From Nitrospirota bacterium (lineage in GTDB: Bacteria; Nitrospirota; UBA9217), in contig CAWIYV010000011.1 of assembly GCA_963840455.1 (NCBI GenBank), forward strand, positions 288,001 through 352,000: a stretch of 64,000 nt of DNA. Direction: 5' to 3'. Below are positions 53,047 through 56,600 of the stretch, in pieces. The notes below the pieces were generated by a model. It was given only the letters and a program-made list of their open reading frames with translations. It ran no database searches and was not told the origin of the DNA. The position numbers and the translations under genes are program-made. Numbering within the stretch: the stretch's first letter is position 1; each line of letters starts with the position of its first letter.

Positions 53047-53103
53047 GAGCAGCCTTGTCCTTACGATCATTCTCCGTGCTGGCCGGCATCCCCGCACCAA
53101 GGC

Positions 53104-53135
53104 AAAAAAAGGGAGGCGCTCCATGGCGCCTCCCT
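53104..53135 (-). terminator. Intrinsic terminator of the ext-like operon
   Basis: AGGGAGGCGC-CATGGA-GCGCCTCCCT followed by a T-tract on the minus strand. Confidence 0.85.
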
Positions 53136-53164: not shown

Positions 53165-54397
53165 TCAGATACGGAACTGAAGCATGGCGGTCCAGGTCGT
53201 GAAATCCTTATTCGCTGCATCCTCCTTCGAATAATCGTTTATGGAGTACTCGAGCGTCAGCCTCAGGTTCTGGCCACTGATATAATAATTGACGCCGAGG
53301 GCGGACCACTTGATCTCCTGGTCATAGATGCCCTGAAGCTGAGCAAAGTTCCATTTTTCATAGCGGCCGAAGATCTGGAGGTCAGCTCCGCCGATCTTCC
53401 CGGGAAGGAGGTAGCCCGCTTTCGCATACCATCCGTTCTTCTCTCCATTGATGCCGATGCTCCTCAGATCGGGGTCCGCACCCTTATAGGCCCCATCAAA
53501 GTCTTCCTTCAAATAGGCCCCGGAGACCGTGAACGTTCCCGCCGGCGTCGGATACTCGAAGAACGCATCATACGTATATGCCTTGTAGTCCTTCGTATCG
53601 CTCAAGCCCGCAACGTTCCCATAGACGGCGGCAGACTCGACCTGGTATCCCGCACCGACGGTCAGGACCTTTTTCTTGCCGAGATAGGTGCCCTTGTAGG
53701 TGAGCGAGTATTCGGGGTCAAGAAGGGAAACGTGGGCCCTGGCCGTGTACCGCAAGTTGCTCTTCGGATCATTGATATCATCATTGCCCTTCATTGCAGA
53801 GAGCCGGTACTGGAACAGCGCGTCTGCAATATTCCCCCAGAGGAGCACGCCGAAATCGCGGTTCAGCCGCGGCAGGTCCGTATAGACAAAATAGGACCGG
53901 TCCACGCTCAACGGTTCGAAACAGCTCTCGTTGTCCTCCCGGACCAGGGGGTCCTTGGTCAGGCCCGCGCGAAGCCGGACTGAATCGGACCAGTCCGCCG
54001 TAAAGAACGTGTCAATGATATCGAAGTTCTTTCCCGGCGTTGCCGAAACCGAGGTAGCATTGATCCGCTGATCGCCTTGATACTGGATGGCGGAGTAAAA
54101 TCCGTAGACATCGTTCAACTGGCCGGAGAGCATGAGCCGGTTTCTCTTGAAGAAGATGTCCGTCGTAGTGTCGGTCCCGTTCGGGCCCGACCCCGTGTCC
54201 CGGGACTGGAAGTACAATTGGAATGCATAGCTGAACTGGATTGAAGAGACGACCTCCGCGACCTTTTGGGCCGTCTCACTTGGTACGTTTGGTAACGCTT
54301 CCGTCTGCTGAGCCTGAACGACAGGTACGCCGCACAGGAGAAGAGCCAGCAGCAGCCACGCAGACAGCGCGTATCGTCTGGATCCTGCTTTAGCCAT
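53165..54397 (-). CDS. extI: Outer-membrane porin, OprO/P-like (ExtI-like)
   Basis: Signal peptide, RNRLMLSG, RDFGVLLWG, beta-barrel C-terminus; recalled similarity and synteny with Geobacter ExtH/ExtI. Confidence 0.72.
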   Translation of the reverse strand: MAKAGSRRYALSAWLLLALLLCGVPVVQAQQTEALPNVPSETAQKVAEVVSSIQFSYAFQLYFQSRDTGSGPNGTDTTTDIFFKRNRLMLSGQLNDVYGFYSAIQYQGDQRINATSVSATPGKNFDIIDTFFTADWSDSVRLRAGLTKDPLVREDNESCFEPLSVDRSYFVYTDLPRLNRDFGVLLWGNIADALFQYRLSAMKGNDDINDPKSNLRYTARAHVSLLDPEYSLTYKGTYLGKKKVLTVGAGYQVESAAVYGNVAGLSDTKDYKAYTYDAFFEYPTPAGTFTVSGAYLKEDFDGAYKGADPDLRSIGINGEKNGWYAKAGYLLPGKIGGADLQIFGRYEKWNFAQLQGIYDQEIKWSALGVNYYISGQNLRLTLEYSINDYSKEDAANKDFTTWTAMLQFRI

Positions 54398-54455: not shown

Positions 54456-54719
54456 CTAACACGAGCACTCGAACTGATCACGGTACTTGAGACGAGGTTT
54501 TTTCTGCGGAGGCGCCTTTTTCTTTTCCGGGGATTCCTTGCCCGTAGGCGAGAGGGCATCTCCCGGCTTCTTGTCTTTCTGGTCCTCCGTACGGGACCCC
54601 TCGTCCGGCTGCTGCGCGGCGCCGTTCTTTGAGCCCATGGCATGGCAGACATGCACCAACGGGCCTGCAGCGAACAACAATACCGCCGCGAGAGTTAGAT
54701 AGGTGATCATGTTCTTCAT
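54456..54719 (-). CDS. Small secreted protein ending in CSC
   Basis: Signal peptide, low-complexity linker, KYRDQFECSC*; starts 4 nt after the rhodanese stop. Confidence 0.75.
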   Translation of the reverse strand: MKNMITYLTLAAVLLFAAGPLVHVCHAMGSKNGAAQQPDEGSRTEDQKDKKPGDALSPTGKESPEKKKAPPQKKPRLKYRDQFECSC

Positions 54720-54722
54720 TAC

Positions 54723-56372
54723 CTAGTATCCCGGTGCGATGGGACCTCCGCCTCCTCCGCCGCCGCCCCCTGAACCACCTCCAACACCGAAATACACCGC
54801 GTCCTCCTCTTCGATCTCATTTGCCGTTGCGGCATAGGAATTGGGCAGCAGCGGGGTGCATCCTGCGGGGCTGTATGTGGTGACACCAGCCACGCTCGTA
54901 CTGCTAGAACAAATACTTCCGTCTAGAGCAAGGCGCTCCACTGCCCTCTTGGTGATGAAGTCCCACCGGTCTCCCACGGTATGGCCCGTAGTTGTGGCAA
55001 AAGAAACGGTCATGCCCTCACCAATCGTGTACGTTCCGGCTGAAATAGGAACACTTTGTTCGTTCCAGACCGTATTGGTCGCACTGCTCGAGAGCCACCA
55101 GCTGAACGTATCAGGCGTGCCTGAGCTGTCGATCTGGACCCTAAAGAACCTGCTCGCTGTTCCGCTGTACGCCCCCCCTGCGGTCATGTCGTTGAGGTTC
55201 AAAACGGTCCCCGTAGCCGACGTATAGAACACCGGACCCGGCGTTGTATCGAACGTGTAGACGACCAACTCACTGCGGGACGGGACATCTGTCCTCCAGG
55301 GAGAATCAGGTTGTAACATTCCACCAGGCCCCGCTGCCATCTGCCCCCACTGGCTCCAGGAACCGTCGTACAAAGAGACAGGCCAATCAAGTATCGCATC
55401 AAGAACAAAGAACGCCGAACTGGCGATCACTCCTGTCCTTCAGTACACGTGGGCAATCTTTGTGCTGTCGATGCCGATGGCATTGAACATCGCTGCAAGG
55501 ACATCGGGTGCTTTGAAACGATAGTTTTTCGTAGAATCGAACAAATCTGTGTAGAGCATTGCCTTGCCGTTCTTGAGACGGCCTTCGAAGGCCACAAAAT
55601 CGCTTCCCGGGTTGAATACCCCGCCAGTGGACCCTCGCTTGCCGGCATAGGAACCGTCGGTCGGCACGCTCCTCATGTCAACCGGAATGGCATTAGCCAC
55701 TCTGCCTTCGGCAACCTTGATCATATCGCTTAGAGAGGCCCTGAGGTCCGTACGCAACTGGACGTTTTTCTTCACGCTGTATGTGGCAGGCGTGGGGGTT
55801 GGCGGGTCGCCCGGAGTCAGACCGTATGTTGCATTCCAGGCAAAGTTGATCCCATCGAGCACCTTCAGCTTTTCCTTGGGAAAGCCCCAGTACCGGAAGA
55901 TCCAGTAGGACCTCGTAGCGGTGAGAACAGTGCCTGCGCTAGGAGAAGCCGCCCCGCTGGTCAACACGATGGTCGTATCCCTATCGATCCCAAACTTCTG
56001 GACAAGAGCGTCTATGTGCGAGCCATCGAGAACCATGGTGACATCCGCCGCCGGCCCCTCCGTACGGGTCTGGGCGATGTCGGCACTATTCACGAATTGC
56101 GCGCCCGGAATGTGGCCTGCAGTGTAGGTCGCCAAGGAGGTGACATCGAGGATGATCACCTTGTCGTACCCCGTACTGTTCACGACGCCACTGTCGATCC
56201 ATGCCTTGAGTGTTTCTGGGGAGATGAGCGTAGCAGATGTTTGAGAGGTTGTCGGTGTGTCGTAGTTGGACGTACTACAGCTGTTGATCAACAGGGGGAC
56301 TGCCAGGAGAGACATCAAGAGCGCCAAGAAAATCAATTTGCTGCCGAGCCATTGCTTTTTGATGAAAGCCAT
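54723..56372 (-). CDS. extH: Selenocysteine-containing tandem rhodanese lipoprotein (ExtH-like), 549 aa
   Basis: ORFs 55440-56372 and 54723-55430 are in frame across a single TGA (55442-55440): HVY-U-RTGVIAS...LYDGSWSQW. GHIPGA in the first domain; lipobox. Confidence 0.88.
55401..55439 (-). promoter_or_regulatory. Bacterial SECIS-like element
   Basis: UGA AGGACAGGAG UGAU CGCC-AGUUC-GGCG UUCUUUGUUCU; apical loop 18 nt from UGA with G at loop position 2. Confidence 0.75.
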
Positions 56373-56571
56373 CCTCTGCCTCCTTTCAGCGTATATGCCC
56401 CGAACGAAAACAAAAAAAACATGAGTCCCTTTTCCTTACTTCACCTCCTTTTCGTGCTGAACCATAGAAATAAATCCGCGAATTGTTCTTGAAAGGTCTG
56501 CGACGTGTAGAGAAGATATTTCATTCACCTGACACAGCACTTCATAGCTCAATGATGTCAACAATGATTAA

Positions 56572-56600
56572 AGTATAGTCTCCGGAAAAATGACTGTCAA
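56572..56600 (-). promoter_or_regulatory. sigma70 promoter of the ext-like operon
   Basis: TTGACA-17 bp-TATACT. Confidence 0.8.

Follow-up and report, generated by a model that had tools for sequence, protein, structure and literature searches.

An ExtH-family tandem rhodanese of Nitrospirota that very probably carries selenocysteine as its catalytic nucleophile

In the passages of the literature on which we draw here, ExtH of Geobacter sulfurreducens is described as a rhodanese-family lipoprotein encoded next to ExtI (PMC6148476; PMC5877670), is treated as an outer-surface component (PMC6148476), and is noted in Desulfuromonadales in clusters that consist of extH and extI alone (PMC6148476). 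Deletion of extI in G. sulfurreducens impairs the reduction of both selenite and tellurite (PMC5877670; PMC6148476), and earlier work on a selenium-substituted rhodanese as a selenium delivery protein is cited in the same context (PMC5877670). The ExtKL protein of that Geobacter gene cluster, also called MccSep, is a pentahaem selenoprotein found mainly in Desulfobacterota and Nitrospirota, where it acts as a periplasmic polysulfide reductase that is essential for the respiration of elemental sulfur (S0); the 2026 study of this enzyme left open the route by which polysulfide enters the periplasm as well as the sulfur-transfer components (PMC13510729). Here, we analysed a stretch of 64,000 nucleotides (nt), hereafter the window, from a Nitrospirota bacterium of the lineage UBA9217 (assembly GCA_963840455.1, contig CAWIYV010000011.1, positions 288,001 to 352,000), and focused on an extH-like gene at 54723..56372 that is interrupted by a single in-frame UGA. 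Very probably, this is one gene, and its product a tandem rhodanese of the ExtH family that would be exported, anchored by lipid and equipped with selenocysteine (Sec) instead of cysteine (Cys) as its catalytic nucleophile; the case for this reading comes from sequence comparison.

Rhodaneses with Sec are an already known kind of selenoprotein. For ExtH, the one form known is the Cys protein of Geobacter. Passages of a 2026 selenoproteome review catalogue the Sec rhodaneses as forms 1-5 of 'rhodanese-like domain-containing protein', for which it gives PF00581 or another model. The motif UxxG is shared by forms 2 and 4, the latter being a rhodanese-related sulfurtransferase of COG2897 (PMC13188914) that was first reported from the Sargasso Sea (PMC1088965). 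The name ExtH occurs 0 times in the text of that review (PMC13188914). No description of a selenocysteine ExtH was found in the passages covered by our literature search, and a search on the phrasing 'Sec-containing rhodanese' returned nothing. The parts of the gene are as follows.

54723..56372, minus strand: extH-like gene, 549 codons with one UGA (Sec311) among them, followed by the TAG stop (54723-54725).
56277..56372, minus strand: residues 1-32, comprising the signal peptide and a lipobox-like site with Cys32 as its last residue (from sequence, alignments and the structural model).
55818..56231, minus strand: about residues 48-185, the N-terminal rhodanese domain, which has no catalytic residue (from PF00581 and Foldseek).
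55323..55781, minus strand: about residues 198-350, the second and catalytic rhodanese domain, whose active-site loop reads U-R-T-G-V-I-A (from phmmer and Foldseek).
55440..55442, minus strand: UGA codon 311, almost certainly read as selenocysteine (from the Cys/TGA column in homologues).
54954..55253, minus strand: predicted beta-rich insert domain of about 100 amino acids (aa), residues ~374-473 (from alignment and predicted strands).
54783..54947, minus strand: residues ~476-530, a conserved C-terminal module that contains an acidic N-x-I-E-E-x-D helix and a pair of conserved Cys (from alignments).
54726..54782, minus strand: glycine-rich (Gly-rich) flexible tail ending P-I-A-P-G-Y (from the translation).

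When TGA is translated as U, the minus strand holds one frame over the whole gene, and its sole TGA is codon 311 at 55440-55442; under translation table 11, the same strand yields two open reading frames (ORFs), 55440-56372 (310 aa) and 54723-55430 (235 aa). The surroundings of the codon read ...IAHVY-U-RTGVIASS..., with YDGSW 23 residues further on. With 310.8 bits over residues 12-349, the read-through protein exceeds the 200-bit cut-off of NCBIfam NF040901, the equivalog model for ExtH, which is named 'selenite/tellurite reduction operon rhodanese-like protein'; Pfam Rhodanese PF00581 is found at residues 53-181. An AlphaFold2 model of the read-through protein (mean predicted local distance difference test score, pLDDT, of 81.2) has two-domain sulfurtransferases as its top Foldseek matches, namely 8q5z (E-value 4.6e-16; template modelling score, TM, 0.80 of target), 1e0c and 3aay. 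In a phmmer comparison with sequences of the Protein Data Bank (PDB), U311 is aligned, in both 1uar and 3p3a, to the Cys at the start of the active-site loop C-R-I-A/G-E-R-S-S; from established knowledge of rhodaneses, we take this Cys to be the catalytic one. Both the single frame across the UGA and the position of this UGA at the catalytic Cys column are, at the least, strongly supported by these results. A sequence-only reading of the window had anticipated much of this architecture: that the two ORFs join across one TGA as VY-U-RTG followed by YDGSW is borne out by the translation, as is the PGY end of a Gly-rich tail, and the beta-rich insert of about 100 aa that it placed in the C-terminal part is recovered in the alignment and predicted to be beta-rich. 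Its proposal of a likeness to Geobacter ExtH is right at the family level, as judged by NF040901, and can be refined, since Geobacter ExtH is a Cys protein and the known selenoprotein there is ExtKL/MccSep.

Comparison with homologues shows which codons occur at this position. Among the 120 best database matches, 71 are about 310 aa long and end ...H-V/A/T-Y right before the TGA, in line with the earlier expectation that annotation pipelines would split the gene, and one such truncated copy of 311 aa is named ExtH in the NCBI annotation; the remaining 49 are longer, full-length proteins, and every one of them (49/49) has Cys at the column of codon 311. ExtH matches were found in 27 of the 401 genomes sampled from the phylum, and six genomes other than that of the window encode full-length orthologues with 68-82% identity over residues 13-549 and exactly one TGA each. 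A motif search located the codon in 20 of the 30 phylum loci (TGA in 11, Cys in 9; 10 without a site). In a collection of genome contigs, it gave 55 real sites in 52 of 79 loci (11 TGA and 44 Cys codons; 27 loci without the motif), and in metagenome contigs 78 real sites in 76 of 80 loci (30 TGA and 48 Cys codons), after removal of one spurious TGA row. Pooling the three locus sets, which overlap, left 33 distinct Sec-type sequences of 48 nt. The column at which the sequence-only reading had called for an alignment of Cys and Sec homologues is thus occupied by Cys or TGA in the homologues.

Three side observations belong to these alignments. Locus L035 (G185:C6) has TGC as its catalytic codon, yet one TGA was reported within its match. 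The orthologue L023 (G127:C1) lacks the stop after ...P-G-Y, and is open for six more residues until a TGA. Finally, loci L089, L091, L104, L183 and L192, on Geopsychrobacteraceae-type contigs, encode ExtH relatives of about 820 aa with two active-site loops and a Cys in each, and these appear to be doubled tandem rhodaneses.

If the TGA were instead a true stop, the locus would be a pseudogene, or a programmed split into a 310-aa N-terminal lipoprotein and a separately started piece of 235 aa. Table 11 does yield exactly two ORFs, a GTG start lies 9 nt past the TGA, and proteins of about 310 aa make up 71 of the 120 best matches. Nevertheless, the break would fall on the catalytic residue itself, in the middle of the catalytic domain, and would leave the second piece without a signal peptide. 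The downstream frame is conserved in every orthologue (68-82% identity overall), the TGA is kept in 33 distinct sequences, unlike a random nonsense mutation, synonymous sites just past it are constrained, and the 49 full-length Cys homologues are continuous without exception. We therefore give very little credence to termination at this codon, and the strongly supported conservation of the UGA and of the protein downstream of it fits the read-through product. Still less probable, to the point of being negligible, is an assembly or sequencing error that replaced TGC or TGT by TGA. The listed sequencing runs each contain at most 0.14 of the sampled words, which leaves room for such an error; the same codon, however, recurs in six other genomes and at 30 metagenome contig sites, and it is accompanied by a clade-specific conserved RNA core downstream.

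Bacterial selenocysteine insertion sequence (SECIS) elements follow the rule that the apical loop lies 16-37 nt downstream of the UGA and has a G in its first two positions. Downstream of codon 311, the features below can be distinguished, with nt numbered from the U of the UGA.

55401..55440, minus strand: SECIS-like element (from the fold, synonymous-site invariance and pair counts).
55408-55430, minus strand: invariant core, nt 13-35 (from synonymous-site invariance).
55417-55421: loop AGUUC, nt 22-26, of fold B, in which nt 3-11 pair with nt 34-42 and nt 15-21 with nt 27-33.
55417-55438, minus strand: alternative fold A, in which nt 5-11 pair with nt 20-26.

The 48 nt from the UGA onwards fold with -14.8 kcal/mol into a structure whose stem begins at the A of the UGA and whose loop, AGUUC, has G as its second nucleotide. 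This agrees with the earlier claim that a hairpin right after the UGA fits SECIS requirements in loop spacing and in the position of the G. More telling is the constraint on synonymous sites. In the codon alignment, codons +4 to +11 after the TGA are identical in all seven orthologues (7/7), and the best 12-codon window of synonymous identity in the whole gene starts at +3, with 0.905 against a gene mean of 0.564 (240 informative columns). For the peptide R-T-G-V/M-I-A-S, 21 distinct Sec-type sequences use GTG in 18 cases, ATC in 21, GCC in 21, AGT in 20 and TCG in 21, and GCG follows in 19, whereas 13 Cys-type genes encoding the same R-T-G-V-I-A-S spell the Val with four codons and the Ser with five, and vary in the next residues, too. 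Over the 33 distinct sequences, 83.8% of the cells are paired in fold B, a level reached by 0 of 500 shuffles; the compensatory changes in this fold are few and all come from distant rows, and in some orthologues the fold of lowest energy is fold A. These comparisons lend good support to a conserved RNA element, with a core of about 23 nt, immediately 3' of the UGA, but not to one exact architecture, fold A or fold B.

In a distant Sec clade (L041, L093, L085 and L088), a different hairpin is seen at nt 6-27, in another register, and two positions look compensatory between L041 and L093 when read by eye.

The sequence-only reading had named selA, selB, selC and selD as the genes to look for, and the genome encodes all four with scores above the curated cut-offs. 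The contigs of the genome carry adjoining selA (606.9 bits) and selB (383.5 bits) genes, a selD gene (359.8 bits), and two tRNA-Sec genes with the anticodon tca (G000:C1:311722-311816, L014, and G000:C9:389439-389529, L015), both of which exceed the gathering score of Rfam RF01852 (66.5 and 52.9 bits, with 47 required). The selD gene (G000:C14:252661-253584, L010) has its own in-frame TGA near the N-terminus with a hairpin after it, which makes it a selenocysteine form of SelD. Otherwise, TGA serves as a stop in the window, at the end of 19 of the 36 long ORFs.

Even with the machinery present, the UGA could be decoded, in part or for the most part, with Cys or some other near-cognate residue, for instance when selenium is scarce, and the product would then be an ordinary Cys rhodanese. 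Cys can enter at Sec codons under selenium limitation in other systems. Cys is functional at this position in the 49 full-length homologues, and the at least four to six switches between the two residues on the family tree indicate that Sec and Cys are interchangeable in evolution. However, the genome has the full Sec machinery, the conserved RNA element that follows the UGA is a hallmark of decoding through SelB, and a gene that called for Cys would more simply use an ordinary Cys codon, which leaves this explanation with only a small chance. UGA 311 is almost certainly read as selenocysteine, as judged from the codon column, the RNA core and the machinery together.

To place the Sec and Cys forms relative to each other, we used a quick, unrooted maximum-likelihood tree. 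It comprises 114 distinct rows, of which 34 are Sec and 80 are Cys; rows with fewer than 200 residues before the site, or with fewer than 55 after it, were left out. The tree requires at least six changes between Sec and Cys, and its well-supported branches force at least four. Every Sec row falls within one mostly Nitrospirota clade of 67 rows, and TGA occurs in 0 of the 40 rows of the Desulfuromonadales-type half. The gene of the window belongs to an all-Sec clade of 24 rows (Shimodaira-Hasegawa-like approximate likelihood-ratio test, SH-aLRT, 96). L034, the L153 group and the main clade are Sec rows between which Cys rows intervene on the tree, yet the same nucleotide core follows the UGA in all of them. 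This common core suggests, within the limits of an unrooted tree, that the Sec form originated once and later reverted to Cys.

Compared with ExtH of G. sulfurreducens (GSU2940, of the extHIJKL cluster), the protein of the window shares the family model, the signal peptide with a conserved Cys, the two-domain rhodanese fold, the C-terminal module and Gly-rich tail common to ExtH homologues, and an ExtI porin as its immediate operon partner. It differs in having Sec as its catalytic residue, where the Geobacter-type protein has Cys, in the additional beta-rich insert of about 100 aa, and in a tail that ends in Tyr, Cys being the last residue in 70 of 98 scored rows. The export signal is well conserved in the family: Cys32 is nearly invariant (at least 90% conserved in two homologue alignments), and the AlphaFold2 model predicts a helix at residues 4-29 of the signal peptide. 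The putative lipidation site that ends in this Cys, I-N-S-C, is close to the usual lipobox, though not canonical.

The insert is missing in homologues of about 430 aa and present in those of about 530 aa, and in the model it is predicted to form strands, with pLDDT values of mostly 71-93 over the block. As a candidate for its fold, we considered the flagellar junction or cap beta domain (FlgL 5ziz, Z score 8.0; FlgK 4ut1, 7.6; FlgL 7c7z, 7.0), and rejected it; we assign no fold to the insert, since these best structural Z scores lie within the range common for unrelated models. In the C-terminal module, E479, D484, G485, C488, C505, P510, S512, N518, E521, D524 and Y527 are invariant or nearly so. 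Residues 532-549 have pLDDT values below 50 and are predicted to form a disordered tail.

With the catalogued Sec rhodaneses, the protein shares the replacement of the catalytic Cys by Sec, as well as the logic of the prediction, which combines a Cys/Sec pair with a SECIS element. Its U-R-T-G fits the UxxG of form 4, a comparison made by motif and description only. It differs from the catalogued forms in being a predicted exported lipoprotein encoded in a porin operon, and in coming from anaerobic Nitrospirota of sediment and wetland metagenomes, not from surface-ocean plankton. Among enzymes of solved structure, the two-domain thiosulfate sulfurtransferases are closest in fold (bovine TST 8q5z/1rhd, RhdA 1e0c of Azotobacter and the Thermus protein 1uar; TM 0.79-0.83 of target), and the catalytic residue is at the same position, but identity amounts to only 20-24%, and these enzymes are soluble Cys proteins that have no lipid anchor and lack the insert, the C-terminal module and the tail.

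The surroundings of the gene contain the following features.

54456..54719, minus strand: small ORF of 87 aa between extH and extI (conserved in tblastn searches).
53165..54397, minus strand: extI-like outer-membrane porin gene (NCBIfam NF040900 porin_ExtI, 462.2 bits against a cut-off of 150).
56572..56600, minus strand: sigma-70-like promoter match, TTGACA-17 nt-TATACT, 11/12, about 200 nt upstream of extH.
53100..53135, minus strand: intrinsic-terminator-like hairpin of 10 pairs (8 G-C) followed by a T run, about 30 nt past the extI stop; a consensus match only.

Downstream of extH, the porin gene was found in 144 out of 189 related loci, a set in which contig ends cut many loci short. The promoter, too, is a consensus match only, with three such sites in the region against 2.1 expected. 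The product of the 87-aa ORF begins with a signal peptide and ends in an almost invariant K-K-P-R-L-K-Y-R-D-x3-C-x-C, with a K/E-rich stretch of low complexity in between. Its relatives, found by tblastn in 39 loci, always lie just downstream of extH; the ORF belongs to no NCBIfam or Pfam family, and its best ESM Atlas score, 0.79, is uninformative. Whereas this small ORF with its terminal CxC lies between extH and extI, Geomonas has a different small gene, extJ, after extI, and, unlike the Geobacter ext cluster, the window has no linked cytochrome, Rieske or cytochrome b genes.

The ExtH tail ends in Cys, as G-C, in 70 of 98 scored tree rows, whereas the clade of the window ends P-G-Y. For the 98 tree rows in which both features could be scored, the terminal Cys and the small gene are distributed as follows.

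70 rows: tail ends in Cys, small gene absent.
20 rows: tail without a terminal Cys, small gene present.
8 rows: tail without a terminal Cys, small gene absent.
0 rows: tail ends in Cys, small gene present.

Striking as these raw counts are, only five of the contrasts between the two features are phylogenetically independent, and a sign test on them is not significant, so that we treat the pattern in these sequences as a lead and not as a result. The Geomonas oryzae extJ gene downstream of extI (L123, 6886-7210, plus strand) also ends ...Q-G-C, and Geomonas ExtH ends G-G-G-G-C; a terminal Cys thus recurs on several proteins of the ext cluster.

What the putative selenoprotein does with its chalcogen is a separate matter, and nothing in the window itself separates a sulfur role from a selenium role. 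The genome encodes a homologue of MccSep/ExtKL (G000:C4:2266-3576, plus strand, L212), 55% identical to a Geomonas copy, with five CXXCH motifs and one in-frame TGA. In Geobacter, MccSep/ExtKL is encoded in the same gene cluster as ExtH and ExtI, but it belongs to a cytochrome family and is unlinked to extH here, being on contig C4, with extH on C11. MccSep-like genes were found in 123 of the 401 phylum genomes sampled, and nearly all of the listed matches have one TGA. That the protein is a real selenoprotein for the handling of selenite or tellurite (uptake, reduction or selenium delivery), and not for sulfur respiration or disproportionation, is in keeping with the names of NF040901 and NF040900, both 'selenite/tellurite reduction operon' proteins, with the impairment of both reductions upon deletion of extI in G. 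sulfurreducens (PMC5877670, PMC6148476), and with the citation, among the references of PMC5877670, of a selenium-substituted rhodanese as a selenium delivery protein. On the other hand, the linked selenoprotein of Geobacter, ExtKL, is reported to reduce polysulfide and to be indispensable for the respiration of S0 (PMC13510729), and the genome of the window encodes its homologue; we regard the selenite/tellurite role as somewhat unlikely. Capture and delivery of sulfane sulfur is the role we favour, with a probability that we would put near the midpoint, on the strength of the literature that treats ExtH as an outer-surface protein, describes the extI deletion phenotype and identifies MccSep as a polysulfide reductase.

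An analogous arrangement is provided by Sud of Wolinella succinogenes, a single-domain periplasmic Cys rhodanese that binds polysulfide sulfur on its catalytic residue and passes it to a polysulfide reductase. The analogy with the protein of the window is one of function only.

Several observations weigh against the reading of the locus as a Sec-containing ExtH that serves in sulfur transfer. The NF040901 alignment covers profile positions 4-353 of 430 only. As for the RNA, the energy of the hairpin is unremarkable (z = -1.40, with 18 of 200 shuffles of the 48 nt folding as well; z = -0.66 for a 71-nt fold), fold A, with 80.5% of the cells paired, is reached by 143 of 500 shuffles, the main clade shows almost no covariation while folds A and B compete, and an Rfam scan of 54600-56500 at E <= 10 matched no family. 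The sequence is contained in no RNA run, just as none of the listed runs exceeds the fraction of sampled words given above. The 15 neighbouring ORFs contain 0 CXXCH motifs, from which we conclude that a Geobacter-type cytochrome cluster is absent here, and the extHIJKL(MNOPQS) cluster with ExtJ, ExtKL and cytochromes is not complete at the locus; the full ext cluster, however, may not define ExtH, since passages of PMC6148476 report clusters of extH and extI only in Desulfuromonadales. MccSep is present in 16 of the 27 ExtH-positive genomes against 107 of the 374 ExtH-negative ones, but in the family to which the genome of the window belongs, the figures are 14 of 17 against 33 of 47 others. 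With the enrichment largely gone at this level, co-occurrence adds little beyond kinship, and we have dropped it as a functional argument. Finally, the sulfur-relay function is drawn from the family and from the neighbouring genes.

On the reading that we prefer, a Sec-containing ExtH, the mechanism could proceed as follows. The extH gene would be co-transcribed with the small secreted protein ending in CxC and with the porin ExtI. SelB with Sec-tRNA would bind the hairpin that begins at the UGA, Sec would be inserted at codon 311, and translation would run on to the TAG at 54723-54725. The exported protein may then capture a chalcogen, either selenium or the sulfane sulfur of polysulfide or thiosulfate, in the periplasm or at the outer membrane, hold it on Sec311 as an Se-S(n) or Se-Se adduct, as in other rhodaneses, and pass it on, plausibly to the periplasmic selenocysteine polysulfide reductase MccSep encoded elsewhere in the genome.

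A bolder extension, which we consider rather unlikely as a whole, is that the Sec form of ExtH, the small CxC protein and ExtI constitute a three-part chalcogen relay at the outer membrane that delivers sulfur to MccSep. Polysulfide or selenium would enter via ExtI and be caught as an Se-S adduct on Sec311, and the adduct would be handed to the terminal CxC of the small protein, which, in this lineage, would replace the C-terminal Cys, a 'swinging arm', found at the end of most Gly-rich ExtH tails. The extension takes its lead from the distribution of the terminal Cys and the small gene over the 98 rows given above.

The most immediate consequence of a Sec-containing ExtH concerns annotation: an entire clade of ExtH genes in Nitrospirota is truncated in public databases, and its catalytic half, extra domain and tail are missing from protein catalogues and metabolic reconstructions. 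Moreover, Sec and Cys forms are interleaved on the tree, and with at least four to six switches between them, all inside Nitrospirota, the ExtH family offers a natural matched-pair set for asking what selenium contributes to a sulfurtransferase. A Sec rhodanese encoded with ExtI in genomes that also encode a Sec-containing MccSep is a concrete and testable candidate for the sulfur supply of MccSep, and with it two selenoenzymes would act in one sulfur pathway. Were the relay to hold true, it would be the missing route of sulfur delivery to MccSep.

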